A stretch of 64,000 bases of DNA from a virus (taxonomy: Duplodnaviria; Heunggongvirae; Uroviricota; Caudoviricetes). The notes beneath the pieces are model-generated. The model was not told the DNA's origin. It made no database searches and was given only the letters and a program-made list of their open reading frames with translations. The first letter of the stretch is position 1; every line of letters starts with the position of its first letter. The position numbers and the translations under genes were made by a program. Shown here one piece after another: positions 8,711-24,873 of this stretch. Location: the IMG/VR virus record IMGVR_UViG_3300032093_000003, one strand, 5' to 3'.

Positions 8711-8748
8711 AATAATAAATATATAAAAAAATAGAACAAAAACAAAAT

Positions 8749-8824
8749 AGGACAAGAGTAGCGAATTCTTGTCCTTGTCGCGGAATATAACCATCCCGGT
8801 CCTAATCCGAGTATCTAAACTCGG
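8749..8824 (-). other. three consecutive GC-rich hairpins, the last terminator-like
   Basis: Stems AGGACAAGA/TCTTGTCCT (8749-8775) and CCGAGT/ACTCGG (8807-8824), with a 5-bp stem between them. Confidence 0.55.
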
Positions 8825-8830
8825 TGTATC

Positions 8831-9160
8831 TTACCTGTGTTTTATGAGTAACTCACCCAACACTTCTATTTTACCAACTAATTTTTGAAATTCAACTTGA
8901 CCCAAACTCGGATCATCTGTTTTACATAATTTATCCAATAGTTCTTTATATTCTTTTTTGGATTTTTCAACATCAAATTTACCTTCAGATGCTTTCTTAT
9001 AATAAGGTAATTTAACCACAAAATGATGATAAGTTAACATAGAAGAACCACCCTTTTCTTTTGCGGTATTCGCAATCTTTGTAGCACCTTTTAATCTTTT
9101 GCCAGAAAATTCCTCAAACTGTTCTTCTTTGGATTCTTCTAATATCTCTAAAAATTTCAT
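8831..9160 (-). CDS. hypothetical protein with MKFLEILEE leader
   Basis: 109-aa ORF. Confidence 0.75.
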   Translation of the reverse strand: MKFLEILEESKEEQFEEFSGKRLKGATKIANTAKEKGGSSMLTYHHFVVKLPYYKKASEGKFDVEKSKKEYKELLDKLCKTDDPSLGQVEFQKLVGKIEVLGELLIKHR

Positions 9161-9161
9161 A

Positions 9162-9497
9162 TTATTCTCTCCACATTGGATTTGCGATTATTAATTTATC
9201 ACCTTCAACACGAGGAATCTCACCCATATCTTGATTATCGGCAAATTCTATTTGATCGGGATAAAATTTTTGACCATTAAAAACGGTATAATAAGTGTCT
9301 TCGTTGTCGTTAGAATTGTCTTTACCCATATGACTATAACCTTGTGATCTTAATGCATCTTTAGCCGCATCCTGAGCTGTAGGTTTATTAAAAAATCTAC
9401 CAAAACGACCGAAAAACCCTTCACCTTCATTAATCAAATTATATTTTTTTCTTATTTCATTTTTTTCGGATTCTGTAATTGTAAAACGTTTTCCCAT
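9162..9497 (-). CDS. hypothetical protein with MGKRFTITESE leader
   Basis: 111-aa ORF; TATTTATA at 9512-9519. Confidence 0.75.
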   Translation of the reverse strand: MGKRFTITESEKNEIRKKYNLINEGEGFFGRFGRFFNKPTAQDAAKDALRSQGYSHMGKDNSNDNEDTYYTVFNGQKFYPDQIEFADNQDMGEIPRVEGDKLIIANPMWRE

Positions 9498-9538
9498 TAT
9501 ATTTCTTTTTATATAAATATCTCTATTATATTTTTAAC

Positions 9539-10279
9539 TTACATCAAAGATTTTGCATGTCCTAAATCAATAACACCAAATTTTTGTGCTTGTTTTAAAT
9601 AACCACCATTCACAAAATTATTTGGTGAATTTTTTATCATTCTCTTCCAACCATTATATTGAGTAGTGTAGTCCCATATTTTTTTTGTGTCACCCCATCC
9701 CTTTTTATATAACCAACCACCAACATTACCACCAGTTCTATCAGCACCATGATGACAATGAATTAATGTATTTCCTTTATCCAACAATTCATTTACTTTA
9801 TCTTGATCTTTTGTGGATGATAATTTATAAAATTTACACCCATTTTCTTCACAAACTCTTTTTTCTTCTTTTATGGATAATCCAGAACTATCTCCACCAT
9901 CACCATTAAATCTTACTACATTTTTTATTCCATATTTTAATATAACACCTTTTAGTGCATCTGCCGTAGGTTCTGCGGAACGATAATTGTTATCACCTAA
10001 AGGTATTTTATGGAAATTTTTTATACTTTTATCGTTTATATCTTCCGAATCTGTCGAGAACGTAGGTCCAACGTATTCTTTACCATAAACCTCTTCATAG
10101 GCCTTTCTGGTCATTGGTCCCATAATACCATCAACACCATCTTTTTTAGGTCCATATTTACCGATATCTTTTTTATGGACATAAACTAATTCTTTTTGTA
10201 TATCTTCTATACTTTTATCTTCAACATCGTCAGTTTCTAAAATTAATTTTAGTTGGCGTTCTGTAATTAAAATCTTCAT
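9539..10279 (-). CDS. peptidoglycan-binding motif fused to a Cys-based (CX5R) phosphatase domain
   Basis: DGVDGIMGPMT (PG_binding_1-like) and HCHHGADRTG. Confidence 0.7.
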   Translation of the reverse strand: MKILITERQLKLILETDDVEDKSIEDIQKELVYVHKKDIGKYGPKKDGVDGIMGPMTRKAYEEVYGKEYVGPTFSTDSEDINDKSIKNFHKIPLGDNNYRSAEPTADALKGVILKYGIKNVVRFNGDGGDSSGLSIKEEKRVCEENGCKFYKLSSTKDQDKVNELLDKGNTLIHCHHGADRTGGNVGGWLYKKGWGDTKKIWDYTTQYNGWKRMIKNSPNNFVNGGYLKQAQKFGVIDLGHAKSLM

Positions 10280-10296
10280 AATATATATAAATATTA

Positions 10297-10818
10297 TTAT
10301 AAATCTAAACCACCTTTATCTAATTTTTCAAAATTTTCTAAATCCCCAAAGTTTGGGTCTGATTTTATTTTTTCTTGTTTTGATAGTTTCATTTGATCCA
10401 ATCTATGTGCATTCATATGGTTTTTAACAATGTAATAAATAATTTCTGGATCTCCACCTTTTTCAACAATCCAATCAGAATATTTTTTTACTAATTCAGC
10501 AGACACATCTTCATGACCATATGCAGTTGGAAAACCGGTTTTAGGGTTTATAGAATGAGTTTCATCCTTACCAATGTCATGAAACAATGCGGCTAAAATT
10601 ATGTTCATGTTATTTGGGTAATTCTTAATTGCTCTTTTAACTACCATTATAACATGTTTTAACGTATTGCCTTCGGGATGATAATCAGGTCTTTGTGGTA
10701 CTTTCCACAGACCAAAAAAACGATTTTTTATGTCGTCAGGTAACGAATAAATCAATTTTTTTGCATCAACATCACTTTTTATTTCTTCAAACTGTGATTC
10801 TGTTATTATAATTTTCAT
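10297..10818 (-). CDS. HD-domain phosphohydrolase of the type fused to CCA enzymes
   Basis: QRPDYHPEGNTLKH and AALFHDIGK motifs. Confidence 0.8.
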   Translation of the reverse strand: MKIIITESQFEEIKSDVDAKKLIYSLPDDIKNRFFGLWKVPQRPDYHPEGNTLKHVIMVVKRAIKNYPNNMNIILAALFHDIGKDETHSINPKTGFPTAYGHEDVSAELVKKYSDWIVEKGGDPEIIYYIVKNHMNAHRLDQMKLSKQEKIKSDPNFGDLENFEKLDKGGLDL

Positions 10819-10826
10819 ACCAATAA

Positions 10827-12005
10827 TTATATTATTTTTTTGAAATTATCTAATTCAATTTTATTTATCATATCACCCACTTCTTTACCCGGTTTTAAAT
10901 TCATTTTTTTCATAACATCATCTCCACTAACGGTTAAATTAAAATTAACAAAGGCATTTAATAACTTTTTATCAATACCCTCTAAATTACCAAAAGTCAT
11001 TATTTGATCGTCAGATAAATTTGTGTTTTTTTGTATTCTTTTTAATTGAATTACATTATCTAATGACATATTTTTTAAATTAATTAAGAAAGTAATGTCC
11101 TTTATCTCATCAACACTATATTTTAGATTATTCAATTTTTTTCCGATTGTAGATAGATCATTGTTTTTTAATAATCTTGATATAACTAAAATCGGATCTT
11201 TAATTTCTATAAAATCTTTTGACACAGATAAACCTCTGAATATTGAATCAAATAAATTATACTTATCAATCAATTGTAAAAAATGTATTGTTGATTTAGA
11301 TGATATAATTCCCTTTATAAATTCATCTCTAATCCTTTCTCCCGATATACCATCTATACTTGAATTTCTCTGTAATGATTGATCAACATTATTATCTAAA
11401 TCTGAACCGAACCTACCAGCAAATCTAATTGCTCTAAGTATTCTTAATCTATCTTCATTAAATCTATCGTCAGGGTTACCAACAGTTCTAACAATATCGT
11501 TTTTTAAATCCTCAACACCGCCAACTAAATCAACAACTTCACCTGTGTCAATATCATAATAAAGAGCATTTATTGTGAAATCCCTTCTTTTCGCATCTGT
11601 TTCAATATCTGTAAATTCAACTTTATCTGGTCTTCTTTTATCTGACTCTGAATAAGATTCAGATCTAAATGTTGCTATTTCATATTCATCGTTATCTGTA
11701 AAAACATTTATAACACCGAACGCCTTTCCCGTCGGTAATGTTTTGTAACCTGAATTATTTAATATTGTTTCAACCTCATCGGGTGTTGCATCCGTGGTCA
11801 AATCATAATCTTTTGGTGTTTTACCCAATACCGCATCTCTAACCGCACCACCAACAACAAATAATTTATAGTTATTTTTTTTGAAAATATCTTTAATTTT
11901 AATAATGTCTTCAGGTATTGATATATTGAATTTTATTCTTTCTTCAACCAATAAATCTGAATACATTATTTTATTTAATTGTGATTCAGTTATAACAATT
12001 TTCAT
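10827..12005 (-). CDS. cca: CCA-adding tRNA nucleotidyltransferase (class II / poly(A) polymerase family)
   Basis: VGGAVRD, DYDLTT, RRDFTINA and EDRLRILRAIRF motifs. Confidence 0.9.
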   Translation of the reverse strand: MKIVITESQLNKIMYSDLLVEERIKFNISIPEDIIKIKDIFKKNNYKLFVVGGAVRDAVLGKTPKDYDLTTDATPDEVETILNNSGYKTLPTGKAFGVINVFTDNDEYEIATFRSESYSESDKRRPDKVEFTDIETDAKRRDFTINALYYDIDTGEVVDLVGGVEDLKNDIVRTVGNPDDRFNEDRLRILRAIRFAGRFGSDLDNNVDQSLQRNSSIDGISGERIRDEFIKGIISSKSTIHFLQLIDKYNLFDSIFRGLSVSKDFIEIKDPILVISRLLKNNDLSTIGKKLNNLKYSVDEIKDITFLINLKNMSLDNVIQLKRIQKNTNLSDDQIMTFGNLEGIDKKLLNAFVNFNLTVSGDDVMKKMNLKPGKEVGDMINKIELDNFKKII

Positions 12006-12043
12006 AATATATAAATATAAGAAACATTAACCCAACTATAAAA

Positions 12044-12051
12044 TATTTATA
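12044..12051 (+). promoter_or_regulatory. TATTTATA motif, putative phage late-type promoter
   Basis: On + before the + ORF at 12065; on - at 9512, 10286, 12010, 17552, 18650 and 20489 before - ORFs. Confidence 0.6.
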
Positions 12052-12064
12052 TAAAAAGGGGTTT

Positions 12065-12433
12065 ATGGAAAATTTATTACCCTTGACATGGTATATTGAA
12101 TCTCCAATAGATTTTGAACATAAGGAATATGTTCTATATTCTTATCTACAAAAAGTCGACCACGATTTCCATAATAAAATGTTATCTCCACACCTTTTAC
12201 ATTTAGAAAAATTAATAGATGAACTATTAAATTTTGATGCGTCTTTTAACATGATCAAAAAAGATTTTGACAAAAATAGATATGTCTTTTTTGAAAATGT
12301 GAAACTGGTGGGTGAAGACGACAAACTTATTTATGAAATAAGAAATATCGTGGAATTTGCAATCCCACAAGTAGAACCACGAATTAAATTGGGTTATTCA
12401 ATCTTAAAAAGGAACAATCAAATATTATATTAA
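12065..12433 (+). CDS. hypothetical protein
   Basis: 122-aa ORF divergent from cca with its own TATTTATA. Confidence 0.75.
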   Translation: MENLLPLTWYIESPIDFEHKEYVLYSYLQKVDHDFHNKMLSPHLLHLEKLIDELLNFDASFNMIKKDFDKNRYVFFENVKLVGEDDKLIYEIRNIVEFAIPQVEPRIKLGYSILKRNNQILY

Positions 12434-12716
12434 AATAACCCTCTATTCCACTGTTTAGGTGGTATCATTTTACCCATCTCACCATACTGAAATAATAAAC
12501 GATTAAAGAATTTAATAATAGTTTTCATACCAATAAATAGAAAACTATTATTTGAAAAGTATGACAACTTTTGCTCTAAAATATGATGGCCAAACTTATT
12601 TTTTTATAAAGATTTTAATACTTTATTATTTTCTTTTATTCTTTTAGATGTCTTTAAAGTAGATTTTCTACTTTTCATCGGTTTTTGTTTTTTCTTTGCT
12701 CTTGCCATGATTTTAT

Positions 12717-13487
12717 CTATTTATTTAAATCAAAATCTTTTATAAATGAATCGTGTGATTTTTCATATGATTTTAACGTTTCATCTTTCTCATTACTTGT
12801 ATATTGCCAATTCCAATATAATTTATCATTTATTTTAAAACCGTAAAATTCATGAATTTTACGTTGTAAATCAATTACATTTGTTCCATTAAAATTTTGT
12901 CCTACACATATCATTCCACCCTCAATATTTTTTAACAAATTTGATTCACCTAAACTAGCGTGTCTATTTTCCAACCATGTTAATCTTTCAATTAAATTTT
13001 GATAAAACATATTTGCGGAACCCCATCTAACCGAACTTAAAAATATAACACAATCAGATTCAAATAATTCTTTACTTATTTTCCAAAGTTCATCTGATTT
13101 ATTATTTATAGACGCCCAACATCTATGATGTCCCGATGGGTTTTTTTCATCATCTTTTAGAACAGATTTTTTAACACCACATGAATTACCATCAGATCTG
13201 GACACATTACCTTCACATGGAAATATTTTTAATTCAGAAACATCTATAAGTTTTACATTATCCAATTCATCGGCCAAATATTCTGCAAGTATCTTTGATT
13301 TAGGTATGTCAATGTTACTTTTATCCCAATTGAATCTGTTCGAACAACTCAATAATAAAACCTTTTTCTTAGTTTTTAACACCTCCACCGTATCTTTTAG
13401 TTTATCTAATCCGTTTTTTCTGACGTTTTCTTCAGATAACATCATTTTACGAATTCGATTAATTTCCTCTTTTAAAATTTTTTCCAT
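12717..13487 (-). CDS. flavodoxin-fold NAD(P)H-dependent FMN reductase / iron-sulfur flavoprotein-like
   Basis: IFPCEGNVS...CG...C cluster; SDCVIFLSSVRWG...NLIERL. Confidence 0.7.
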   Translation of the reverse strand: MEKILKEEINRIRKMMLSEENVRKNGLDKLKDTVEVLKTKKKVLLLSCSNRFNWDKSNIDIPKSKILAEYLADELDNVKLIDVSELKIFPCEGNVSRSDGNSCGVKKSVLKDDEKNPSGHHRCWASINNKSDELWKISKELFESDCVIFLSSVRWGSANMFYQNLIERLTWLENRHASLGESNLLKNIEGGMICVGQNFNGTNVIDLQRKIHEFYGFKINDKLYWNWQYTSNEKDETLKSYEKSHDSFIKDFDLNK

Positions 13488-13508
13488 ATAAATAAATATA
13501 TCAAAATA

Positions 13509-13913
13509 ATGATACTTATTGTTATGGTGTCTCTACTGTTGTTAGTTAAAAATAAAAAATTTTTATTGCTTAAAAGAAGTCCATCCGAGTACAAATATTC
13601 GGGATTTTGGGGATTACCTGGTGGTTCTGTCGAAAAAAATGAAACCCCGACGGATGCTTTAATTAGAGAAATTGGAGAAGAACTTGGTATCAGTATCCCT
13701 AATTTTATATTATTGAATAAATACGATATGGGTAATAATTTAATAAATGTTTATGTTTATAATTCACCCGAATTTGATGAAAATAAAATTATATTAAATG
13801 ATGAACACACCGAATTTAAATTCTTCTCTTATTATGAAATTAATAATATGAAAGATATCATTCCAACAACAATCAATTTTGTAATTGATTATTTATCTAA
13901 TCCAAACCTTTAA
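13509..13913 (+). CDS. NUDIX hydrolase
   Basis: Nudix box GGSVEKNETPTDALIREIGEELG. Confidence 0.85.
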   Translation: MILIVMVSLLLLVKNKKFLLLKRSPSEYKYSGFWGLPGGSVEKNETPTDALIREIGEELGISIPNFILLNKYDMGNNLINVYVYNSPEFDENKIILNDEHTEFKFFSYYEINNMKDIIPTTINFVIDYLSNPNL

Positions 13914-14307
13914 CTTCTTTATCGTACTTTTTAAATCTATTGGGATTTGACATCATTGCACTTTTTGGAAATAAACGTTTTTTACGTGTAAATGCAAAAC
14001 TTCTACTACGTTCATCGATTTCTTCTTCAGAATCCATCATCATTTCGTCCACCGCATTTGTAAATTTATAACACCTATCAGAAATTTTATTTTTATCGTG
14101 ATCAAACATTGTAACAATCACTTCATTGTATTTTACAATCATATCAGGGTGATGATTTTGTTCTTCCGCAATTTCACCTACTTTATTCACGAAATCTAAC
14201 ACATCTTTATAAGAATCAAATTCAAATTTTTTACATAATTTACCTTTCACGACTTTCCAATCGGATTTAAGTTTATTCATTTGAGATTCTGTGATTATTA
14301 TATTCAT
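13897..14307 (-). CDS. phhB: pterin-4-alpha-carbinolamine dehydratase-like protein
   Basis: KKFEFDSY...FVNKVGEIAEEQNHHPD motif. Confidence 0.8.
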   Translation of the reverse strand: MNIIITESQMNKLKSDWKVVKGKLCKKFEFDSYKDVLDFVNKVGEIAEEQNHHPDMIVKYNEVIVTMFDHDKNKISDRCYKFTNAVDEMMMDSEEEIDERSRSFAFTRKKRLFPKSAMMSNPNRFKKYDKEVKGLD

Positions 14308-14337
14308 TCTTTGTTTTTTTCTATTTGATTTCTCCCC

Positions 14338-14835
14338 CTACGCTTGTATATCACTGTAACTAGATTTACTCGTTATAGTTATAAATGATTTTAATCCATC
14401 AACAATATTTCCCCAAGTTAACCCCCATTCACTATCTAATTCTTTAAATAAATCTTGTTTTTTTTGTTTACTGAATAATCTATCAACCGCACAAAATTCA
14501 TTTTTGTTTTTTATTTGTTTTAGTACATTGACGGTATTTGTTGGTTTTGATAAACCTTGTATTTGATTATACAGATTATTAAATAATTGAATATTTCTAT
14601 TATTATTTAAGTTAAGTTGATTGTCACCCATTCTTCTACATTCGGTAAACAAATTAAGAACATCTTTTTTATATTCAATATCACCTGTTGTACCATCATC
14701 AGAGCCAGGTACATTTAATCCGGTATTTGATGGGTCAGCTAAAACATCAGCAAGACCAAGTACAGGTTGTTCTTTTATTGTTAATGATTTAATCACTTTT
14801 TTTAATTGTGATTCTGTTATTATTATTTTTTTCAT
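14338..14835 (-). CDS. hypothetical protein with MKKIIITESQL leader
   Basis: 165-aa ORF. Confidence 0.75.
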   Translation of the reverse strand: MKKIIITESQLKKVIKSLTIKEQPVLGLADVLADPSNTGLNVPGSDDGTTGDIEYKKDVLNLFTECRRMGDNQLNLNNNRNIQLFNNLYNQIQGLSKPTNTVNVLKQIKNKNEFCAVDRLFSKQKKQDLFKELDSEWGLTWGNIVDGLKSFITITSKSSYSDIQA

Positions 14836-14838
14836 ATA

Positions 14839-15486
14839 TTATCTCTTATAATAAGTGTCGTATACATCAGAAGTCAATCCGTAATCAATTAGGACTATTC
14901 TATTATTTCCAACTAACCCATATGATGATAATCTACACAAATCACCCCAAGGTAATTCGTAATTAACCATAAAATCCATCATATTATAAACAAATTCATT
15001 TTCCCATATGTCATTATAATTCTCTGGTTTTGATACAGTGAAACCAAAATCAACTGAAATACTATTACGATATTTTATTATGTGACAATAATTTTCAAAT
15101 GTAACACCCACAATATTTTTGAAAATTGACGGAGTCACTTTTTTGGCTAATTCCATTTCAACCCATAGGTTGTTTTCATCGTGATCAAATATTTTTGCAA
15201 CAACATCATTCACATAAGAATCATTACCAAAATCAATCTCAGTTTCATTTTGGGCAATACCCTTCTTGTTTTTGGCGAGCTTTAAGACCTTATTGTCATC
15301 GATTTTATACACTATTCTACTACTACCCGAAGATAGTCTTTGGAGATGTTGATTACAATAATTAACTCTGGCAGAAAACGATGTTAATTTTTTAAATTCC
15401 TCAATACTCCAACTAGTTGGATAATCCTCATCCAAGTCTTTTTGTATTAGATTATTATATTGTGATTCAGTTATGATTATTTTCAT
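14839..15486 (-). CDS. protein-kinase-like fold protein
   Basis: GSSRIVY, VLKLAK, QNETE, DL..SSYG and LIDYG resemble kinase subdomains. Confidence 0.6.
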   Translation of the reverse strand: MKIIITESQYNNLIQKDLDEDYPTSWSIEEFKKLTSFSARVNYCNQHLQRLSSGSSRIVYKIDDNKVLKLAKNKKGIAQNETEIDFGNDSYVNDVVAKIFDHDENNLWVEMELAKKVTPSIFKNIVGVTFENYCHIIKYRNSISVDFGFTVSKPENYNDIWENEFVYNMMDFMVNYELPWGDLCRLSSYGLVGNNRIVLIDYGLTSDVYDTYYKR

Positions 15487-15496
15487 ATTAAATTAA

Positions 15497-16084
15497 TTAA
15501 AAGTCCATACCACCCCATTCTTTAGCTCTTACATCATAATCATCTCTATCATCATAATCATCTGGTCCATCATAATCATCGTAATCTCTTTCAATTACAC
15601 CTGATCCACCACAAGAACTACATCTTGATCCATCATACTGTCCTTCGCCAGTTCCATTACAATTAGAACACATATCATCACCATCTTCCTCATCATTATC
15701 GTCTTCGTCCTCATTTTTTTCATCATATAATTCAGGATTCGGAGCGAGCTCAACTTCACTTTCCATATATTCTTTCGGATATAAATCTATTCCTTCTGAT
15801 TTCCAATCAATTAAATAATATGTATCATTTGGATCATCATTTCCCAAATATTTAACCGTCAGATCGTATGAAGGTTGATCTTTTGCCGCCTCCAAATTTG
15901 GGAAAATATTCAAAATCTTACCATAGTAACTTGGATCTTCCGATAACGATACGGGATTCATTACAATGTCTCCAACTTTAAAATTTTTATCACCAGATAC
16001 ATTATCTTCCTGAGATTCATTTTCATTTAATCCCATCATTTTTTTTATACGGGAAACTTGTTCGTTTAAGTTTTGTTTTTTCAT
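15497..16084 (-). CDS. acidic protein with a DnaJ-type CxxCxGxG zinc-finger pair
   Basis: CSNCNGTG and CSSCGGSG. Confidence 0.7.
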   Translation of the reverse strand: MKKQNLNEQVSRIKKMMGLNENESQEDNVSGDKNFKVGDIVMNPVSLSEDPSYYGKILNIFPNLEAAKDQPSYDLTVKYLGNDDPNDTYYLIDWKSEGIDLYPKEYMESEVELAPNPELYDEKNEDEDDNDEEDGDDMCSNCNGTGEGQYDGSRCSSCGGSGVIERDYDDYDGPDDYDDRDDYDVRAKEWGGMDF

Positions 16085-16108
16085 CTTATTTGTTTTTAAT
16101 AAATATTG

Positions 16109-16993
16109 TTAAGGAATCATTATTATTGAGTAATCCCTCGTCCCTCCGTCAAATGTACCATCTTTGATTGATTTAGCACCAGGAAAATCATTTAATATTT
16201 TATCTCTTGATGGGAAGACACCTTTAGTTTTATCGTCTCTAACATTTAGTGCCAATCTTAAATAATTGATTTGTGTTTTACCTGGGCCTATTTTTAAAGA
16301 ATAGTTATTTGTTTTAGTATCCAAAACAACTTGAACATTATTTAAATCAATTGAACTGCCTTTTGATTTTATTTGAATGTCTTTAATAAATTGACTTAAA
16401 TCCGTACTTGTTATATTAACACCACTATTTTGTTGTTGGTTTCCTTGTTGTGTTTGACCGCCACAATCACTTTGATAATCTCTGTGTTTCCATTGTATCC
16501 AATATTCTTCCAATCCTTCGGGTGTTTTTGTTAATTGACTAACATCCAATTCGTTATTTAATACTACATTTTCTTTTTTTCCTGATGGAATATAATTTAA
16601 TATTTCACTTTTTCTTGCATTTAATTCAGGTGTATGATTCCAACCCCCAACATGGGCAAATCCCGTTCTTGCCTCACATTTATCAGAAACACCAACAAAT
16701 GGAATAACAACAGTATAGACAACATTTCCACTACCCATTCCTTTTGTTGTCATTTGTATACCTTTAAAGTCAACTTTGACATATGTTCCTGATCTATATA
16801 ATTCTTTTAATTTTGCTGCAACGTATTGTGTGATCGTGTTAGAATACTTATGTGCAACATCACCCGTATTATCAAACTCAGGTCCAACGTATTTTCCCGA
16901 ACAACCACCCGCACTACATACAGGTGTTTCTGCTTGTTCAATCAATAGACCCATCATCTGTTTTATTCTATATGTTTGTTCTTGTAGGTTCAT
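16109..16993 (-). CDS. hypothetical protein with MNLQEQ leader
   Basis: 294-aa ORF. Confidence 0.75.
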   Translation of the reverse strand: MNLQEQTYRIKQMMGLLIEQAETPVCSAGGCSGKYVGPEFDNTGDVAHKYSNTITQYVAAKLKELYRSGTYVKVDFKGIQMTTKGMGSGNVVYTVVIPFVGVSDKCEARTGFAHVGGWNHTPELNARKSEILNYIPSGKKENVVLNNELDVSQLTKTPEGLEEYWIQWKHRDYQSDCGGQTQQGNQQQNSGVNITSTDLSQFIKDIQIKSKGSSIDLNNVQVVLDTKTNNYSLKIGPGKTQINYLRLALNVRDDKTKGVFPSRDKILNDFPGAKSIKDGTFDGGTRDYSIIMIP

Positions 16994-17010
16994 TTTTAAC
17001 TATATGAAAA

Positions 17011-17535
17011 TTACATTTCAAGATCTTTCATATTCATTTTTTTATCAAATGATGTTTGATTTGTTGGGTTACTATCAATTGCAAATAATTCTTCAAAAAA
17101 TCTTTTTCCTGGTTTAGCGATATTACCTAAATCTATAACACCGAGAGATGATTTAAAATTTTTTAAATTTGGTATCTCATCTTTTCTAGTTGAAAAAATA
17201 TTTTTTATTAATGGATGATCCACTCTATATGATGCAAAATATGCATTATTGATTGATTTCAATAATTCTAATGGTTCATGTTGTGGACTGAAAGTTATTG
17301 TGTAATCTATATTACCATTGTTTTTAACAATGTTAATTGTATACATTGCTCCGTTATATGTTACTTGTAACTTATCTGGTGATACACTAACTTTTCCACC
17401 CCATTCTTTAATCGATTCTAAAAATGAATCCCAGTATCTCGGAGCATTTGTGGTGGATTCCTCTTCTTTAACTAAATTGTACTGTTTTCTGATTTCATTT
17501 CTTTCAGATTCAGTAATTGTAAAACGTTGTCCCAT
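17011..17535 (-). CDS. hypothetical protein with MGQRFTITESE leader
   Basis: 174-aa ORF; TATTTATA at 17552-17559. Confidence 0.75.
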   Translation of the reverse strand: MGQRFTITESERNEIRKQYNLVKEEESTTNAPRYWDSFLESIKEWGGKVSVSPDKLQVTYNGAMYTINIVKNNGNIDYTITFSPQHEPLELLKSINNAYFASYRVDHPLIKNIFSTRKDEIPNLKNFKSSLGVIDLGNIAKPGKRFFEELFAIDSNPTNQTSFDKKMNMKDLEM

Positions 17536-17576
17536 AATATTTTGTTTTTAATATAAATATCTTAAAAAAATGAAAT

Positions 17577-17604
17577 AAAAAAAACCTCCCGGTTCCGGAG
17601 GTTT
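17577..17604 (-). terminator. intrinsic terminator; near copies at 18662-18686 and 20501-20528
   Basis: AAACCTCC/GGAGGTTT stem plus T-tract on the minus strand. Confidence 0.7.
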
Positions 17605-17636
17605 AAAAAATAAAATCGATTAATAATATTAATTTT

Positions 17637-17909
17637 TTAAGAATTTTCAACTTCGATCTCGGTATCTGTTCCCAAATCTTTTTCTCTGGTGATATCCATT
17701 TCCATAAGTTCATCATACAAACTATCTGCCCAACTTTCGGATCCGGGTAATGGTTTCATATCTGAAATGTTTTCCTTAATATATTCAGATATTTCTTCAT
17801 CATCCTTACCCGATAATTCAGGATAATTGTCGGTATCAATTTCTACAGAGTCACGAACAACCATTGTTCGTTGATATTCGATTAGTCTTACATTAATTTT
17901 CTTTCCCAT
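17637..17909 (-). CDS. hypothetical acidic protein without leader
   Basis: 90-aa ORF with its own terminator. Confidence 0.7.
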   Translation of the reverse strand: MGKKINVRLIEYQRTMVVRDSVEIDTDNYPELSGKDDEEISEYIKENISDMKPLPGSESWADSLYDELMEMDITREKDLGTDTEIEVENS

Positions 17910-17957
17910 AAAATGTTTTTTGTAAAATATACAAAAAATAATTTAAATAATAAAATT

Positions 17958-18644
17958 TTACAGTTTTGGTATGTTTTGTGGTTTTTTAACAAACGTTGAT
18001 GATGAGGTATTTTGTGGTTTATCTAAAACATCATTTTTAACAAGTACTTTATTTTGTTTATTTAACGCTTCTTTATTAACATCGTCGTTAATTAAATTCA
18101 ATAAAGATTTTAAGTGATCTCCCTTTGTTAAAAAGGTCATAAATTTATTAAAGTTTTCACGATCATCTTTATTGACAAAATTATCACTGGCCCATTTTAA
18201 AAACCCCGATTTTCCTTGTGAAGTTAAAACGGTAATACCTGATTTATGTATTTTACTTAAAACATTTGCAATATTGGGTTTGATACCCAAAAAATTCATT
18301 GCTCTTACCGTTCTTCCTAATGAAAGTGGACTTGTTAGTAAACCAATTATTCCTTCAGTGTATTTTCCTCTTTTTAAATCTCTATATGCCATCATTGATC
18401 CATAACCTGCCGCCAGAAAACTACCGGCCAAAGGAATTTTCCAAAGTCCAAATTGTACAATTGTATCGATAATTAATGGAAATTCATCTCTTATATCGGC
18501 CAAGGCGCCTATGGGATCATGTGATCTACCGCCAAACATTGCCGGACCACCTAACATTATATTTTGTTCACCAATAATTGATTTAACATTACCTCTTTCG
18601 GACTCCAAAAGATAATAAAATCTATTTTTATATTGATCGTTCAT
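17958..18644 (-). CDS. hypothetical protein with RFYYLLESExGNVKSIIGEQ leader
   Basis: 228-aa ORF; TATTTATA at 18650-18657. Confidence 0.7.
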   Translation of the reverse strand: MNDQYKNRFYYLLESERGNVKSIIGEQNIMLGGPAMFGGRSHDPIGALADIRDEFPLIIDTIVQFGLWKIPLAGSFLAAGYGSMMAYRDLKRGKYTEGIIGLLTSPLSLGRTVRAMNFLGIKPNIANVLSKIHKSGITVLTSQGKSGFLKWASDNFVNKDDRENFNKFMTFLTKGDHLKSLLNLINDDVNKEALNKQNKVLVKNDVLDKPQNTSSSTFVKKPQNIPKL

Positions 18645-18710
18645 ATCATTATAAATATAACAAAAAAACCTCCCGGCGGGAGGTTTTAAAATTTAAATCG
18701 ATTAAATGTG

Positions 18711-19043
18711 TTATCTAATAAAGAAAGATAATACAGATAATCCACCGATTAATAATGGAAACCATGTTTTCTTTCCACCCATAAGTGATAGGTGTAAAGC
18801 CACCGCACCACTCATTACAGATACGATGATTAACAAACCGTAAAGGGATGTTGCGGGGAAAATAAATAACAATACTCCGAGTAATTCTAAGATACCGATA
18901 GGTACTCTGTAGTTTTGGAGTTTCATGAATTGAAAATTCTGAACCGATTCATTTGATTTAATAATTTTGTCTGTACCACTTTTAGATAGGGTCCAAACTG
19001 CGGGGATACTAAGAATCCAACCGATAATTGATAATACTGTCAT
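18711..19043 (-). CDS. DoxX-like membrane protein
   Basis: Four hydrophobic segments; IGILELLGVLLFIFP...GAVALHL. Confidence 0.65.
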   Translation of the reverse strand: MTVLSIIGWILSIPAVWTLSKSGTDKIIKSNESVQNFQFMKLQNYRVPIGILELLGVLLFIFPATSLYGLLIIVSVMSGAVALHLSLMGGKKTWFPLLIGGLSVLSFFIR

Positions 19044-19127
19044 AATATATTTGTTTTATAAAGTACAATATAAACAAAATAATTGAAATAAAAAAAACCC
19101 CTCACATTGGAGGGGTTAATATTTTTT

Positions 19128-20069
19128 TTAGAAATTTATTTTAATAGGTTGACTTGATACAGTGTTTATTAATTGTGATGCCGCCTGTTGATCATTTGCA
19201 ACACTTGCATTTTGTGTGTTGTAATATGTATCTCCGTTCTTGAAAACGTGTTTATTTTGTATATGTGCGTTTGCCCAATTAATTAAAAGATCATTATCTA
19301 AATTAATCATTTTTTGTCGATCCACCCCTTTATATTCTAAATAAACTAACGCCTTTACCCTATCGGTTATTTCAGGTGGTGCTTGTTGTGGTTGAGTTTG
19401 TTGAGTTTGAGTTTGTTGTGGTTTAGTTTGTTGTGTTTGTTGGCCACCCGAAGAGTTTTGACCTTTATATTTACCAAAAACCCATGCGGTGATTTTACCT
19501 CCTTCCCCATGGTAACACCAATGTCCACACTTCCCTTTTTCATTAAAGATATCAGCGTGTCCCGATATTCCCGGCCATTTGGGGTTATTGGTTATGACAA
19601 AAATTCCTTTGTTACCTTTTAGATATTTTTCAATATTTTCTGGAGTGTTATCTATTGAATCAATTGTAGGTTCCCCAAAAGTTCTTGTTAAATAAATTAA
19701 ACTATTTTTAGCACCTGTTGTAATATCTTTACCTTTAGTGGGATACGTAATACCTTTAAACGTCCAATCTTTTTCACTTCTAAATGCACGACCACATTCT
19801 ACACCCATTTTAATTAATGCCAAACATAATCTGGTTGCACATGCATTTTGGAATGTTTGTGGTGATTGTTTATATTGGTTTGGGAATATACCAGGAAAAA
19901 TTTCTTCCTCATCCGCATTAGGAAAATTATTCCATAAGGCATTAAAATCCATACTTGTTACCACATTTTCAGGATTTACTGAAGCCTCGTTTAATACTTT
20001 CCTTGTTACTCCTTCGTATAGACCTCTTATTCTTGTTTTTTCTTCTTCTGTAATTATAAATTTTCCCAT
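19128..20069 (-). CDS. Tae4-like (NlpC/P60 superfamily) peptidoglycan amidase with MGKFIITEEE leader
   Basis: NACATRL (catalytic Cys) and GHADIFN (His); start moved to the ATG at 20069. Confidence 0.65.
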   Translation of the reverse strand: MGKFIITEEEKTRIRGLYEGVTRKVLNEASVNPENVVTSMDFNALWNNFPNADEEEIFPGIFPNQYKQSPQTFQNACATRLCLALIKMGVECGRAFRSEKDWTFKGITYPTKGKDITTGAKNSLIYLTRTFGEPTIDSIDNTPENIEKYLKGNKGIFVITNNPKWPGISGHADIFNEKGKCGHWCYHGEGGKITAWVFGKYKGQNSSGGQQTQQTKPQQTQTQQTQPQQAPPEITDRVKALVYLEYKGVDRQKMINLDNDLLINWANAHIQNKHVFKNGDTYYNTQNASVANDQQAASQLINTVSSQPIKINF

Positions 20070-20082
20070 ATTGAATTTTTTT

Positions 20083-20475
20083 TTAGGTTGGATAATTGGT
20101 TCTAATTTCACTAAAATTATACAAAACCAATTTACCGTTTTCACATTTCCATCTACACAATTGATATTTCATTGATGCAGGAAGTAACCTTGCATTATAT
20201 TTTCCTTCACTGTTAACATAAACATCTGTTTTATATAACGTCACATCTTTACCATTATATTTTCCCGACCAACTATCAGGAACATTACGACCTCCTTTTA
20301 AAGGTGAGTAATGTCCTTTTTCAAATTGAAATCCTTTTAAACAAGATATATCATCTTTTTTAGGTACGATAGTAGGTTTTATAGTTGATGTGTCTCTACC
20401 CATATTTTGTTCACTGATCACATTTTTAATCAAGTCGATCAATTCACTTTCTGTTAATCTAACAACTTTCTTCAT
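20083..20475 (-). CDS. hypothetical protein with MKKVVRLTESEL leader
   Basis: 130-aa ORF; TATTTATA at 20489-20496. Confidence 0.75.
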   Translation of the reverse strand: MKKVVRLTESELIDLIKNVISEQNMGRDTSTIKPTIVPKKDDISCLKGFQFEKGHYSPLKGGRNVPDSWSGKYNGKDVTLYKTDVYVNSEGKYNARLLPASMKYQLCRWKCENGKLVLYNFSEIRTNYPT

Positions 20476-20526
20476 ATTTTATTTTCTATATAAATATAAC
20501 AAAAAAACACTCCCGGTTCCGGAGGT

Positions 20527-20769
20527 TTAACTTTTTCTCATCTCTCTATATTTTAGATATACACCGACAAAGAAACCCAATGATGAAGAATATTTTAAAC
20601 ATTCTTCCATAGTCGAACCCATCAACATAAGAATAATGAATGAGATGACAGTTGTACCGAAAACTTTCCAAAAGACACTAACCAATAAATAAAACAAACC
20701 GAATGGTAATAATAGAATAACAAAAAGAATACTGAGAATATAACCAAGTATTTTCGTTATTATTTTCAT
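20527..20769 (-). CDS. small membrane protein
   Basis: 80 aa, strongly hydrophobic. Confidence 0.65.
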   Translation of the reverse strand: MKIITKILGYILSILFVILLLPFGLFYLLVSVFWKVFGTTVISFIILMLMGSTMEECLKYSSSLGFFVGVYLKYREMRKS

Positions 20770-20837
20770 ATCATTATAAAATCATAATTTAATTTGATTA
20801 TTTCTTTAATCCTTTGTATGTTTTCTTGTAGATTCAT
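20766..20837 (-). pseudogene. leader-only stub ORF MNLQENIQRIKEIIKLNYDFIMI
   Basis: First 39 nt nearly identical to the starts of 20840..21718 and 21719..22237; stop after 23 codons. Confidence 0.6.
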
Positions 20838-20839
20838 TT

Positions 20840-21718
20840 TTATTTCACAATTTCTTTGAATTTATCCAAATAAACAGTTCTTTCGGAATCGACATTTATT
20901 AATTTAGTTGTTGGTGTCATATATTCGTCTTTGACTTTAATATAATATACACCATTGTCCACTACTCCGAGTTCATTCAAAAAGTAATTTATAAATTCAT
21001 CATCTAAACCATTACTTTTTAATAATCCAATCAATCCATCTTTTGTTAACTCAGTAGTTGGGTCTCCAATTGAAATATCAGGTTTTTGTTTTGTCACCTC
21101 ATACTTAGTTAAATATTGTTTCAAAACTTCTTTTGGGTCTCTTGGTTCCGTTAGTTTTCTAGTCTCAACATTTTTTAATAAAATATAAATTGGAGCGTGA
21201 AGTAAAACATTTTTAATCTTTTCGTTTGGTATATATTGTAAAATACCATTTCCGATATCATCTATTATAATTTTTTTATGTCCACCATATTTTACTTCTT
21301 GAGCCATATACCAATTTCTATAATCAAGTCCTTTTATTAAATCTTTATTATGTGGGTGCAAAGGGAAACCTACTGTTGTGTCTCCTCTTTTCTCTCCGAA
21401 CCCTCCTTTTCTTTTTTCCGCCATTTGTTTATGAAATTCTTCACCTGATTGTGGATTAGGTCCATCACCAGAGTGGTCGTATTTGATTCTGTTTTGAATA
21501 CATTGATCATCATCACATCCAAACATATCACTATCAATTTGAACCCACTGATTGGGGTCTGTTGATTTAAAAAATGGAACCGCATTTAAAATTTTAGCAG
21601 TTTGTGATTTTCCCGCAGATGACGTTCCATCAATCAAAATGATTTCTTTTTCTTGGGTTTCTTCCGTAAGAAGTCCCATTATTTCTTTAATTCTTTGTAT
21701 GTTTTCTTGTAGGTTCAT
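20840..21718 (-). CDS. P-loop kinase (chloramphenicol phosphotransferase/AAA_33-like)
   Basis: IILIDGTSSAGKS Walker A and KIIIDD Walker B. Confidence 0.7.
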   Translation of the reverse strand: MNLQENIQRIKEIMGLLTEETQEKEIILIDGTSSAGKSQTAKILNAVPFFKSTDPNQWVQIDSDMFGCDDDQCIQNRIKYDHSGDGPNPQSGEEFHKQMAEKRKGGFGEKRGDTTVGFPLHPHNKDLIKGLDYRNWYMAQEVKYGGHKKIIIDDIGNGILQYIPNEKIKNVLLHAPIYILLKNVETRKLTEPRDPKEVLKQYLTKYEVTKQKPDISIGDPTTELTKDGLIGLLKSNGLDDEFINYFLNELGVVDNGVYYIKVKDEYMTPTTKLINVDSERTVYLDKFKEIVK

Positions 21719-22237
21719 TTAAGATTTATTAATTAACTCATTAATCAATTCATTGATTTTTTTTAAAGGTTCGTCAGTTCTTAAATCCAAATACATTTCA
21801 TTTGGATTATCTTTATTTGCATCAACAAAACCTAACTTTTTATAATACTCATGAAGTTTTGGTCCACTGAATTCGTCCCTTTTTAATGTAATGATGTTTA
21901 TTTTATTTCTTTTTGAGTGTTCAAAAATATTTTTTAATAATATCAATCCAATACCTTTAATTGCATCATTTTTTCTATCTATTCTTTCTAAATAGAATTC
22001 TTTTGTTTTCCATGGAAGTTCAAGTTCGATACCCATTATTTCATCTTCACCGAAATATTTAACTTCCGCAGTTGCATCACCCAAAGAATAATATATGGTT
22101 GTCACATCACTTATTGCTCCTTTATTTACTTTTATATCTGCGGGAGTATTGTTCAATTCTTCTAATGTGGTACTTTCATTTTCTGAAATTAACCCCATCA
22201 TTTCTTTAATCCTTTGTATGTTTTCTTGTAGGTTCAT
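21719..22237 (-). CDS. GNAT-family acetyltransferase-like protein
   Basis: KGIGLILLK and YYKKLGF motifs. Confidence 0.6.
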   Translation of the reverse strand: MNLQENIQRIKEMMGLISENESTTLEELNNTPADIKVNKGAISDVTTIYYSLGDATAEVKYFGEDEIMGIELELPWKTKEFYLERIDRKNDAIKGIGLILLKNIFEHSKRNKINIITLKRDEFSGPKLHEYYKKLGFVDANKDNPNEMYLDLRTDEPLKKINELINELINKS

Positions 22238-22282
22238 ATTACTATGTTTATTTCTTGTTCGGTAATTATAAGTTTTCTCATA

Positions 22283-23332
22283 TTATATGTAATTATTTTC
22301 TCTCAACATAAAATGACCTAATTCAAATGTTAAAATAGATTTAATATTTTTTTCTTCCCAGTATGGTATTCTTATTAATTGTATGTTGTTATCTTTACAA
22401 TAATTTGTTTTAATTAAGTCTCTTTCTTGTAATGACTTAAATCCTTCTTCTCCACCAAAATACTCAATAGGTTCAAAATGTTGGATACCGTCATATTCTA
22501 TACACACCTCAGTACCATCATTTTTTATTACATGAGCATCAAATTTTAGTTTATCACAATATCTTTTACCACCATAACCAAAGCAACCATCGAAAGATTT
22601 TTGTTTATTTACTTTATAACCTAATTCGTTTAATACACTTATCACCTGAGATTCGCCCTTACTTTCTTTTTTACCACATATAGGGCAACCTGTTTTTCCT
22701 TTTTTTAGGTTATGTATGTTTATACCTTCTTGAGCAAAAACAAAAGGTGTTGTGTGTTTTGTACATATAACATCTTTAACAAATAAAGTTTTATTTTTTA
22801 AACCATCCGTCTTATAAAAAAAATTTTCAGGTTTAAATGATAATCCTCTCTCCGCGGGAAAAGAATTAATCCAATCTCTCACATTTATTTTTACTGCAGA
22901 TATAATTCTATCTTTACCACATTTTCTACAACCGTTCCCCCTTATTTTTAAATCTTTTACATTGATGTTATTTGATATACCATGTTCCTCACCATTTTCA
23001 TCTGTTTTATGACATTTTATACCATCAATAAATCTTCTACCGTTTATTAATCTATATTTTACATTGGAAAAATCTAATTCAGGAAATTGTTTAATTAATT
23101 CTTGGGTTACCACATCGTCATCTTTTTTTTTAGGGGAGATTCTTAACAAATATTTCGTAATATCACCCCATGTATTTGAATCGTAGTTTCTATAAATGTA
23201 TGTTTTTATGCCTGAATATTTAGGATCTTTTCTAAAATCATCCATAGACGAAAATTTAGAAACGTAATCTTTAACATCACTTAAAGTCCATATTTTTTTT
23301 TCAATTTCATATAATATTTCTAATAATTTCAT
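22283..23332 (-). CDS. zinc-ribbon plus PD-(D/E)xK endonuclease (DUF559/Vsr-like, putative homing endonuclease)
   Basis: GCPICGKKESKGE, LKFD, IEYDGIQHF and RDLIKTNYC...LIRIPYWE. Confidence 0.8.
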   Translation of the reverse strand: MKLLEILYEIEKKIWTLSDVKDYVSKFSSMDDFRKDPKYSGIKTYIYRNYDSNTWGDITKYLLRISPKKKDDDVVTQELIKQFPELDFSNVKYRLINGRRFIDGIKCHKTDENGEEHGISNNINVKDLKIRGNGCRKCGKDRIISAVKINVRDWINSFPAERGLSFKPENFFYKTDGLKNKTLFVKDVICTKHTTPFVFAQEGINIHNLKKGKTGCPICGKKESKGESQVISVLNELGYKVNKQKSFDGCFGYGGKRYCDKLKFDAHVIKNDGTEVCIEYDGIQHFEPIEYFGGEEGFKSLQERDLIKTNYCKDNNIQLIRIPYWEEKNIKSILTFELGHFMLRENNYI

Positions 23333-23383
23333 ATTATCATAAATATTCTGAAAAATTTCCAGAAATTTTTTTTTTCAGTTTTA
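23328..23383. repeat. about 55-bp direct repeat, copy 1
   Basis: TTCATATTATCATAAATATTCTGAAAAATTTCCAGAAA(T)10CAGTTTTA. Confidence 0.85.
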
Positions 23384-24823
23384 TCGATTAAAGTCCAATT
23401 TTAGGATTTTTAAGAATTGATCAAGTTTATCATTAATGTTTTTTGTACCTATTTTTTCTAATTTTTGGTTTAAGTTATTTATTTTGGTATAGAGTGTTGG
23501 ATTTGATAATCTTGCAAGACCTGATTTAAATTCTATAGAAGAGGTTATTTGACTTGGATTATGTTTATAGTTATTTATTTCTTTTTCATAATTTTTTATA
23601 ATAATACTAACCACTGAGTTATTGTTTCTTTTTATAAAGTCTTTGATATTTTTAATGATTTCATTATTTTCTATTGGTTTTGTTACTATACCATATATAA
23701 CATCCATTTTAGATAATTCTGTTTCCATTAATTTTTGTATGTTATCATACATTGGGTCAATGATATCTTTAGGTAATTTTTTAAACACATTTATTCCGAA
23801 TGTACTGATTAAGATTGAAGTTAAAAAATCGGGGTCATATACCGATAAGAATTTTTTTAATACATCGTATCTTTTATTTATTACTGATCCCCTTATTATG
23901 AATTTAACTTCATCTAAATTATTTGAATTTGTCTTTATTAATTCTATTATTTCATCAGATGGTTTATTGAATATATTTTTATCTGATCTAATATTTTCTT
24001 TATTTGTTATTTTACTATATTCTATCATCCATTCTCTAATAAAGTTTTTAAAGTCATTATTAAATTCACCATAAAAATGATAAGCATTTCCAAATTCACA
24101 AACACTTGATTCTAAAAATCTACTTATTGGGTCTTTTATGTTCCAGTCTCCCCTTTTTATAAGATAAAAGACTAATAGTCCATTTTGGACAGTATTAATT
24201 ATTACTCGACCAGAACCTTCACCGACATCACCAAATCCGGCTGATGGTATTCCCGTTTGTAATATATTGGTATATTGTGTTAAGTTTTCACAAGATGTTA
24301 TTTTCGGTTTTGATGACATTTCGGCAATATCATGTGAGTGTCTTGAAATTACAACATATAATTTATCCTCACCTTTATATTCTTTAGTTAGTGCACCTAA
24401 AAAATCAGTATAATTTTTTAAAAGTGTATTGTCATTATCATTTAATACTTTGGTTATTTTTATTTCTTGTCCGTTTCTTTTATTTTTTGCGGTATTTTTA
24501 TTAAAATCAACAATTGAGTAACCTAATTCTTCTAAACTTGATGATATTTGATTTTTTAATTTATCATCTAATTTAATGTCTATTTTTAATTTTGGTGTAT
24601 GTTTGGTTGGTGTAATTTGTTCACCAGTTTGTAGATCATAGTATAAACGATAGACATTTTTACCAAATATTTCTGTTAATTTTTCTTCATAATCTGATTT
24701 TAATTGTTTTGATCTAATTTGTTTAGATAGGTTAAGTGAAATATATTCATTAATTAAATTAAAATTAGATAACGTATTTTTAATAATATTTTTAAGTTGC
24801 GATTCTTTAATTAAAATTTTCAT
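23381..24823 (-). CDS. hypothetical protein with MKILIKESQL leader
   Basis: 480-aa ORF. Confidence 0.75.
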   Translation of the reverse strand: MKILIKESQLKNIIKNTLSNFNLINEYISLNLSKQIRSKQLKSDYEEKLTEIFGKNVYRLYYDLQTGEQITPTKHTPKLKIDIKLDDKLKNQISSSLEELGYSIVDFNKNTAKNKRNGQEIKITKVLNDNDNTLLKNYTDFLGALTKEYKGEDKLYVVISRHSHDIAEMSSKPKITSCENLTQYTNILQTGIPSAGFGDVGEGSGRVIINTVQNGLLVFYLIKRGDWNIKDPISRFLESSVCEFGNAYHFYGEFNNDFKNFIREWMIEYSKITNKENIRSDKNIFNKPSDEIIELIKTNSNNLDEVKFIIRGSVINKRYDVLKKFLSVYDPDFLTSILISTFGINVFKKLPKDIIDPMYDNIQKLMETELSKMDVIYGIVTKPIENNEIIKNIKDFIKRNNNSVVSIIIKNYEKEINNYKHNPSQITSSIEFKSGLARLSNPTLYTKINNLNQKLEKIGTKNINDKLDQFLKILKLDFNR

Positions 24824-24873
24824 ATTATCATAAATATTCTGAAAAATTTCCAGAAATTTTTTTTTCAGTTTTA
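24819..24873. repeat. about 55-bp direct repeat, copy 2
   Basis: Same as 23328-23383 except for a 9-T tract. Confidence 0.85.

Follow-up and report, generated by a model that had tools for sequence, protein, structure and literature searches.

A 64,000-nucleotide stretch of a tailed-virus genome (IMG/VR record IMGVR_UViG_3300032093_000003; Caudoviricetes) raises the question of why, between positions 8831 and 24823, some 17 to 19 minus-strand genes whose products have unrelated bodies begin with common N-terminal leaders. The whole stretch, referred to here as the window, corresponds to bases 115786-179785 of one 286,785-bp virus contig, and positions are those of the window unless genome coordinates are indicated. 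A preliminary description of the window had proposed that the leaders address a set of enzymes to the capsid for delivery with the virion. The leaders are probably capsid-targeting propeptides, this lineage's longer counterpart of the capsid-targeting sequence (CTS) of bacteriophage T4. Several independent in-silico lines point to a tag that is removed by a protease, as the preliminary description had it, though they do not bear out its view that the cargo consists entirely of enzymes.

Two families of N-terminal leaders

The leaders belong to two robust types. Leaders of the TES type are about 22 amino acids (aa) long and follow the pattern ...[IL]-T-E-S-Q-L-K-x-I-I-x-x-x-I-N-E-Q, while those of the RIKxMMGL (RIK) type are about 20 aa long and end in G-[LVI]-x-x-E. 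Each of the 18 start coordinates in the preliminary description holds the N-terminus ascribed to it, but the four leader classes recognized there reduce to these two. The classes that had been written as MK(I/K)xITESQ and MG(K/Q)xFxITExE are one family. A further class, MK(F/L)LEILxE (class D), is weak: its member at 8831-9160 is a degenerate TES type as judged from orthologs, and the membership of the gene starting at 23332 rests on seven residues.

A profile of the TES leader matches 14 proteins genome-wide at E<0.005, all of them from residue 1. Of these, eleven belong to the window cluster (9497-24823), three lie to the left of it (genome 111930, 114930 and 96926), and none is in a block of 67 early genes. 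The RIK profile, searched against the whole genome, finds just the five genes starting at 13487, 16084, 16993, 21718 and 22237. Past residue 28 the 19 proteins have no pairwise similarity at E<0.01, which agrees with the original observation that the leaders are shared by otherwise unrelated bodies. Genes without a leader include those for membrane proteins (DoxX and an 80-aa protein), tail-fibre genes, genes on the opposite strand (NUDIX) and all of the early genes; tagging is thus selective, as had been noted from the leaderless NUDIX and DoxX genes interspersed in the cluster. The codons of the leaders vary synonymously, with Ser encoded by both TCN and AGT and Ile by ATT, ATA or ATC, and the DNA upstream of the leaders is not conserved. 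It is the peptide sequence of the leaders that is conserved and not the DNA.

At the sequence level, 15 of the 17 window leaders end in a protease motif of the L/I-x-E type, so the earlier statement that most end in (L/I/V)-x-E holds; a literal L-I-N-E occurs in the genes starting at 9497 and 24823. A Sec or lipoprotein signal was rejected since a charged leader with no hydrophobic core does not fit one, and a leader of the type found in ribosomally synthesized and post-translationally modified peptides was rejected since the cargo consists of full-size enzymes. A full-text literature search with the motif strings found no paper describing these leaders.

Anatomy of the leaders and the glutamate boundary

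An exhaustive search of 1.84 billion cluster representatives with the TES profile (E<=0.001) detected the leader in 757 metagenomic cluster representatives, nearly always at residues 1-25 of proteins that range in size from 30 to 750 aa; a word-index search with the same leader returned only 12 candidates. The metagenomic consensus is M-K-K-[VI]-I-R-L-T-E-S-[QD]-L-K-R-I-[IV]-K-R-V-I-N-E-Q. Among the best 150 of the 757 matches, the first Glu is invariant, and a second Glu, at +13 from T-E, is present in 133 with I, V or L at position -2, directly after which conservation drops. The RIK leader reads M-N-L-Q-E-N-I-Q-R-I-K-E-M-M-G-[LVI]-x-x-E, and its G-[LVI]-x-x-E end is found in 67 of 73 metagenomic sequences and is followed by the same drop, a uniformity that is partly a matter of ascertainment because this set was collected via exact words. 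The bodies behind the metagenomic RIK leaders are likewise unrelated and include nucleoside monophosphate/shikimate-type kinases and PG_binding_1 proteins.

The place where conservation ends resembles a known type of processing site. T4 gp21 cleaves after L/I-x-E (PMC9026906). The T4 major capsid protein gp23 is cut between F-L-T-E and A-E-I-G-G, and T4 gp24 starts with M-A-K-I-N-E-L-L-R-E. In the phage studied here the propeptide of the capsid protein contains Y-L-I-N-E-A, which is invariant in 75/75 relatives, and I-N-E is the consensus end of the leader.

Some of the metagenomic proteins have two or three copies of the leader, the inner ones without a preceding Met, which excludes a purely start-codon-related effect. 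These multi-leader proteins may be polyprotein-like cargo chains that are cut apart in the head. In five of them (P0013, P0017, P0033, P0039 and P0141) K-K stands before the inner copies.

In an AlphaFold2 model of a 130-aa tagged protein, built from an alignment deep in leader sequences, residues 9-23 are predicted to form a helix with a predicted local distance difference test (pLDDT) score of about 85. A low-confidence linker (residues 21-40) and a separate beta-rich domain follow in the model.

Head genes and the tails of the scaffold and protease

The genome encodes a T4-like head module. A prohead protease of the T4 gp21 family (Peptidase_S77, PF03420) is located at genome 62118-62801 and scores 80.1 bits, over the cut-off. 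The major capsid protein is gp23-like (PF07068, 215 bits), the portal protein was recognized by PHROG 213, and the genome also has a large terminase gene. The order of the head genes (portal, a 250-aa protein, a 141-aa protein, protease, a very acidic 428-aa scaffold and capsid protein) is the same as that of T4 genes 20-67-68-21-22-23. The N-terminal propeptide region of the capsid protein aligns with that of T4 gp23 in a BLAST comparison (E 4e-6), and the scaffold holds 15 [IL]-x-E sites. The phage has many metagenomic relatives, whose capsid proteins are 77-94% identical.

Two further properties of the scaffold (genome 60751-62037, minus strand) were noted. A 10-residue repeat, ..P-E-L-E-E-E-M-G-M-E.., places L-E-E every 10 residues from 175 to 244, and relatives have scaffolds of 373 to 534 aa in which both ends are kept. 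Large late proteins that were scanned with PHROG and Pfam mostly gave no matches, and a megablast comparison of the region with cultured phages found none.

The core of the RIK leader recurs in this head module. The pattern [RK][IM][KR]x[LMI]M has 8 occurrences among the 380 proteins counted, versus 0.56 expected from shuffled sequences, and all eight lie no more than 25 residues from a terminus. Five are the leaders; the protease, the scaffold and a 164-aa late protein each have one of the others in their C-terminal tail. With the five leaders that were the source of the pattern left out, there are three C-terminal occurrences versus about 0.06 expected. In about 75 relatives the tails are kept but the sequences flanking them vary, and two of the scaffolds read R-I-K-E-M-M and R-I-K-E-L-M. 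A neighbouring 295-aa late protein has a related tail, R-[FI]-K-x-L-[IL], which is kept in the complete sister genome G002. T4 gp21 is itself processed C-terminally, and one proposal is that its propeptides direct it to the prohead (PMC9026906); the gp21 tail ends in ..A-M-K-K-A-L. The motif count makes a link between the RIK leader and the head core suggestive. For the TES leader, mimicry of a conserved scaffold N-terminus was considered and rejected, as a profile of 27 scaffold N-termini matches no leader.

Late proteins encoded at genome 41422-41916 and 42577-43464 (both plus strand) end in [RK]-[IF]-K-x-L-[MLI], with tails kept in G002. From their tails, these products may be further head-core proteins.

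Promoter motifs of the leader genes

Motifs were counted within 40 nucleotides upstream of genes of the leader cluster, of the head module (scaffold, protease, portal, terminase) and of the early block, which lies on the plus strand at 26-57 kb of the window. TATTTAT[AT] is present at 8/22 leader-cluster genes and 5/11 head-module genes versus 1/67 early genes, whereas the Bacteroidota-type -7 element TAnnTTTG is present at 30/67 early genes and at none of the 22 leader-cluster or 11 head genes. TATTTAT[AT] is situated 10-25 nucleotides before the ATG, for example at window positions 9519, 10293, 12017, 17559 and 20496 and at genome positions 62063, 62824, 66163 and 67993. The split looks like a dichotomy between late and early promoters that would put the leader genes among the late genes. 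Read on the opposite strand, the putative late motif corresponds to T4's TATAAATA.

Near-identical units of ~45 nucleotides are found at 23333-23377 and 24824-24868, upstream of two neighbouring genes. Each consists of an A/T hairpin (CTGAAAAA...TTTTTCAG) followed by AATATTTATGATAAT and ATG, and the unit looks like a duplicated terminator-plus-promoter cassette.

Exchange of leaders and turnover of cargo

Orthologs in G002 show that one leader type can stand in for the other. The HD phosphohydrolase ortholog (49% identity) has a RIK-type leader and the CCA-adding enzyme ortholog (57% identity) has a RIK-like leader, versus TES leaders on both proteins here. The two classes therefore appear to do the same job and are not parts of the enzyme folds. 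Few of the cargo genes in the window have homologs in the examined parts of four sister genomes. The cluster also contains a 23-codon open reading frame that is only a leader and seems to have been left behind when its cargo was lost or replaced, and such a stub together with the turnover of cargo recalls the variable internal-protein loci of the T-even phages.

Tagged genes and their cargo

The preliminary description spoke of about 20 enzymes with leaders. There are indeed about 20 tagged proteins, of which roughly half are recognizable as enzymes. The CCA-adding enzyme, HD hydrolase, pterin-4a-carbinolamine dehydratase (PCD) and Tae4 amidase were named correctly; the phosphatase, flavoprotein and P-loop kinase are weak or motif-level assignments, the kinase-like protein and endonuclease are leads only, and the GNAT assignment was not upheld by Pfam or by a sequence search of the PDB. 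PDB sequence searches with four cargo proteins (the candidate GNAT, nuclease, kinase and phosphatase) gave nothing significant. The genes of the cluster are as follows.

8831..9160, minus strand: 109-aa Lys-rich protein with a degenerate TES leader; three sister-phage orthologs start MKLSDLITESK.. or MKLIDLLTEAK..
9162..9497, minus strand: 111-aa protein with a TES leader (TESE subclass) ending in L-I-N-E; profile E 2.7e-10; late-type TATTTATA upstream
9539..10279, minus strand: 246-aa Cys-phosphatase-like protein with a TES leader; Pfam Y_phosphatase3 E=0.007 and a visible CX5R motif
10297..10818, minus strand: HD phosphohydrolase with a TES leader; Pfam HD 9e-10 from residue 55
10827..12005, minus strand: CCA-adding/poly(A) polymerase family protein with a TES leader ending in L-V-E; Pfam PolyA_pol 2e-40 from residue 48
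12717..13487, minus strand: 256-aa weakly flavodoxin-like protein with a divergent RIK leader; profile E 5.9e-9; Pfam FMN_red 8.5e-4, under the curated cut-off
13509..13913, plus strand: leaderless NUDIX hydrolase; Nudix box visible in the translation
13897..14307, minus strand: PCD with a TES-type N-terminus; Pfam Pterin_4a 2.5e-18 from residue 8
14338..14835, minus strand: 165-aa protein with a TES leader ending in I-K-E-Q, from the TES profile; no match by tblastn versus phages
14839..15486, minus strand: 215-aa kinase-like protein with a TES leader; Atlas leads to phage kinase families, with the shared fold from residue 13-24
15497..16084, minus strand: 195-aa acidic protein with a Cys-rich motif and a RIK leader; profile E 3.8e-11
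16109..16993, minus strand: 294-aa protein with a RIK leader ending in L-I-E-Q; profile E 2.2e-15
17011..17535, minus strand: 174-aa protein with a TES leader (TESE subclass) ending in V-K-E; profile E 1.7e-10
18711..19043, minus strand: leaderless DoxX-like membrane protein; Pfam DoxX_2 6e-9
19128..20069, minus strand: Tae4-family peptidoglycan amidase with a TES leader ending in L-N-E; Pfam Tae4 2e-12, residues 73-179
20083..20475, minus strand: 130-aa protein with a canonical 22-aa TES leader ending in I-S-E-Q, from the TES profile; AlphaFold model
20527..20769, minus strand: leaderless 80-aa membrane protein; hydrophobic sequence
20766..20837, minus strand: 23-codon leader-only open reading frame, RIK type, read from the sequence; its end overlaps the start of the gene for the 80-aa membrane protein
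20840..21718, minus strand: 292-aa P-loop protein with a RIK leader ending in L-T-E; Walker A visible; Pfam CPT E=0.0097
21719..22237, minus strand: 172-aa protein with a RIK leader ending in I-S-E, from the RIK profile; GNAT not confirmed
22283..23332, minus strand: 349-aa zinc-finger/nuclease-like protein with a weak class D start; Atlas leads DUF723/DUF4379/CapR/DUF2726
23381..24823, minus strand: 480-aa protein with a TES leader (K-E-S-Q variant) and L-I-N-E at residues 23-26; profile E 7e-8

Where the cargo has a recognizable domain, the leader generally lies outside it. The Pfam models begin at residue 48 in the CCA-adding enzyme, residue 55 in the HD phosphohydrolase and residue 73 in the Tae4 amidase. 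Homologs of the CCA-adding enzyme in other phages align from residue 30-48 only, and the nearest ones found belong to other giant phages, with about 34% identity. The earlier idea that the cargo was taken from the host finds no backing here. A ClpB-like double AAA+ protein (genome 74632-76647, plus strand) and an RNA ligase of the T4 Rnl1 type (genome 77502-78572, plus strand) are both without a leader; the ligase would complement the tagged CCA and HD pair in tRNA repair.

Several proteins of the region have unusual arrangements of their own. Residues 94-136 of the PCD protein form a 43-aa basic C-terminal extension, which recurs with 63-77% identity in two unrelated leader proteins of sister phages, either directly after the leader or internally. 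The 347-aa product of 7751-8794 (minus strand) has an N-terminal transmembrane segment, a leader-like stretch (M-N-E-L-R-L-E-N-I-I-K-K-Y-L-K-E-E) at about residues 118-135 and, following it, a domain with E-G-G-Y-Y-H-P, and has no Pfam or PHROG match. The 228-aa product of 17958-18644 (minus strand) was counted as leaderless; it contains ..Y-Y-L-L-E-S-E-R-G-N-V-K-S-I-I-G-E-Q.. at residues 10-27, which resembles a TESE leader set back from the start, with a profile match that is not significant.

A model for capsid loading and its alternatives

Reading the leaders as capsid-targeting propeptides suggests the following sequence of events. The tagged proteins would be made late, alongside the head proteins. 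The leader, a short extended N-terminus followed by one helix of ~15 residues, would bind the scaffold core or the inner surface of the prohead capsid, and the RIK class would do so by copying the C-terminal motif of the scaffold and the prohead protease. The T4 gp21-type protease would then cut after the terminal [I/L/V]-x-Glu and free the cargo inside the head; when the next cell is infected, the cargo would exit together with the DNA. That the tagged proteins are bound, cleaved, packaged and ejected is what we infer from the organization of the genes and leaders.

Several results weigh against the model or limit it. The leaders of the HD and PCD proteins lack a second [ILV]-x-E, and the N-terminus of PCD may be partly native, as its leader region aligns with the Pterin_4a profile from position 10. 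Since the modelled helix begins at the Glu of the T-E-S-[QDE] box, this box may serve to cap the helix and not as a first site of cutting. The hydrophobic moment of the helix is no higher than that of shuffled sequences, and the helix is therefore not called amphipathic. In the capsid protein, BLAST sets the T4 gp23 cut site on G-S-F-E-T (~residue 72), some 12 residues beyond L-I-N-E (residue 60), so that L-I-N-E was rejected as the exact position of the T4 cut and is the nearest candidate only. The similarity between the RIK leader and the tails amounts to a 6-residue motif; tail-only profiles rank the RIK leaders next after the tails themselves, but with non-significant E-values (0.16-4.7), and the leader-tail link therefore rests on the motif count. 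Compared with the T4 CTS, the leader is 20-23 rather than 10 aa long and has no detectable sequence similarity, so it is either a functional analogue or too diverged to be recognized and is not a member of that group at the sequence level. Finally, there is no close cultured phage, the best match of the capsid protein to one being 28-42% identical.

An alternative is that the leader is a docking or oligomerization helix for a partner other than the prohead; this could be a compartment of the tail or baseplate, a multi-enzyme assembly in the cytoplasm or, by way of the helix's Lys and Arg residues, the phage DNA. The leader cluster adjoins the tail-fibre genes, K/R occupies four positions of the helix, cargo directed at the cell wall (Tae4, PG_binding_1 and OmpA) would suit a tail tip, and the association of tagged proteins with the head is, after all, something we infer. 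Docking of this kind seems unlikely, as it leaves unexplained why conservation breaks off so sharply at [ILV]-x-Glu when the phage encodes a gp21-type protease, and why the RIK leader has a motif in common with the scaffold and protease tails.

The same logic of a cleavage site fits an inhibitory or timing propeptide, in which case late enzymes would stay inactive until the protease removed the leader in the producing cell, without packaging. For some of the cargo, among it the amidase and the nuclease-like and kinase-like proteins, activity in the producing cell could be harmful. Nevertheless, proteases of the T4 type work inside the prohead (PMC9026906), a 20-aa helix on a flexible linker, as modelled, would hardly be able to inhibit a dozen different, unrelated folds, and two interchangeable classes on orthologs suit an address over a fold-specific inhibitor, all of which makes such a role quite improbable.

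That the leaders have no peptide function, and reflect an initiation bias of AT-rich leaderless-like mRNAs or a recombination-promoting DNA cassette, is highly improbable: M-K-K/I-I starts do consist of A/T-rich codons, a promoter-like motif lies just 10-25 nucleotides before the ATG, three RIK copies are nearly identical in DNA, one leader is a stub, and the hairpin-plus-promoter unit is duplicated upstream of 24823 and 23332, but the conservation is at the amino acid level with synonymous changes (including both kinds of Ser codon), the motif spans 20 residues downstream of unconserved DNA, inner copies without Met exist, and no other gene in the genome has the leader, the 67 early genes included.

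Comparison with known systems

Short terminal peptides address cargo into shells of the HK97 fold in encapsulins, which use cargo-loading peptides, and in phages and herpesviruses, in which the scaffold and protease have capsid-binding C-terminal tails. The resemblance here is that the core of the RIK leader matches the C-terminal tails of the phage's own scaffold and protease; the difference is that on the cargo the motif is N-terminal and is followed by a protease-type site, and binding to the shell is putative.

The closest parallel to the proposed capsid-targeting propeptides is the T4 CTS, which is found on the internal proteins IPI, IPII and IPIII, together with the short propeptides of Alt and gp24; these are removed by gp21. 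The internal proteins of T-even phages are diverse and have only the CTS in common, and the CTS also packages foreign proteins (PMC3012670; PMC9026906). The T4 literature (PMC3012670; PMC9026906) already suggests that it is an evolutionary means by which varied proteins come to be loaded. Of its 10 residues, 4 and 7 are important for targeting and 8 and 10 for processing (PMC9026906). As in T4, the leaders described here are N-terminal tags on unrelated proteins, end in hydrophobic-x-Glu, accompany a gp21-family protease and T4-like head module, and mark a set of proteins that varies among relatives. The resemblance in sequence is limited to the general pattern M-K-x-hydrophobic..hydrophobic-x-E over the first 9 residues. 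Unlike the CTS, the leaders have a helix with a Glu-containing motif on either side, come in two interchangeable classes and occur in tandem or internal copies, and there are about 20 tagged genes per genome rather than a handful, with recognizable enzymes (CCA, HD, Tae4 and P-loop kinases) among them. The concept of a shared capsid-targeting tag is thus already established for T4, while the tag itself, its two swappable classes, the tail motif, the number of genes, the enzyme cargo, the tandem and internal copies and the metagenomic breadth set the present leaders apart.

In phiKZ, 201phi2-1 and SPN3US, long N-terminal propeptides on head and ejection proteins are cut after S/A-x-E by a diverged homolog of gp21, and the identical N-termini of the diverged paralogs gp53 and gp54 of SPN3US were read as CTS-like (PMC5694885). 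These giant phages have many internal head proteins that are processed after Glu, with several cut sites per propeptide. Their propeptides often exceed 100 residues and have no clade-wide consensus, in contrast to the short, portable and conserved module found here on hundreds of families.

Implications for phage biology

A broader possibility, offered tentatively and held to be somewhat short of even, is that a clade of uncultured T4-like giant phages has a plug-in system for capsid loading with two interchangeable tags, one of which was transplanted from the tail motif of the scaffold and protease. These tags, some in tandem or in polyprotein-like chains, would be on hundreds to thousands of protein families, and the cargo would include tRNA-repair enzymes, kinases and cell-wall hydrolases. 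If so, enzyme cocktails in the virion would be a major, unrecognized infection strategy, and the phages' natural way of loading cargo could be borrowed, with the short tag as a possible tool to bring proteins into capsids.

Should the tags act in the proposed way, the genome would reveal what the phage head contains, each tagged protein being a candidate injected protein. Reading them in this way gives a handle for guessing at the function of hundreds of metagenomic families that have no known one, and the tail motif provides a concrete and testable idea of how cargo is recognized, a point that is unclear even for T4. For the phage itself, a trick that involves three proteins in T4 would have been expanded into the delivery of active enzymes, such that the CCA and HD pair for tRNA 3'-end repair, kinases and peptidoglycan hydrolases would be at hand from the first second of infection, before any phage gene is expressed.

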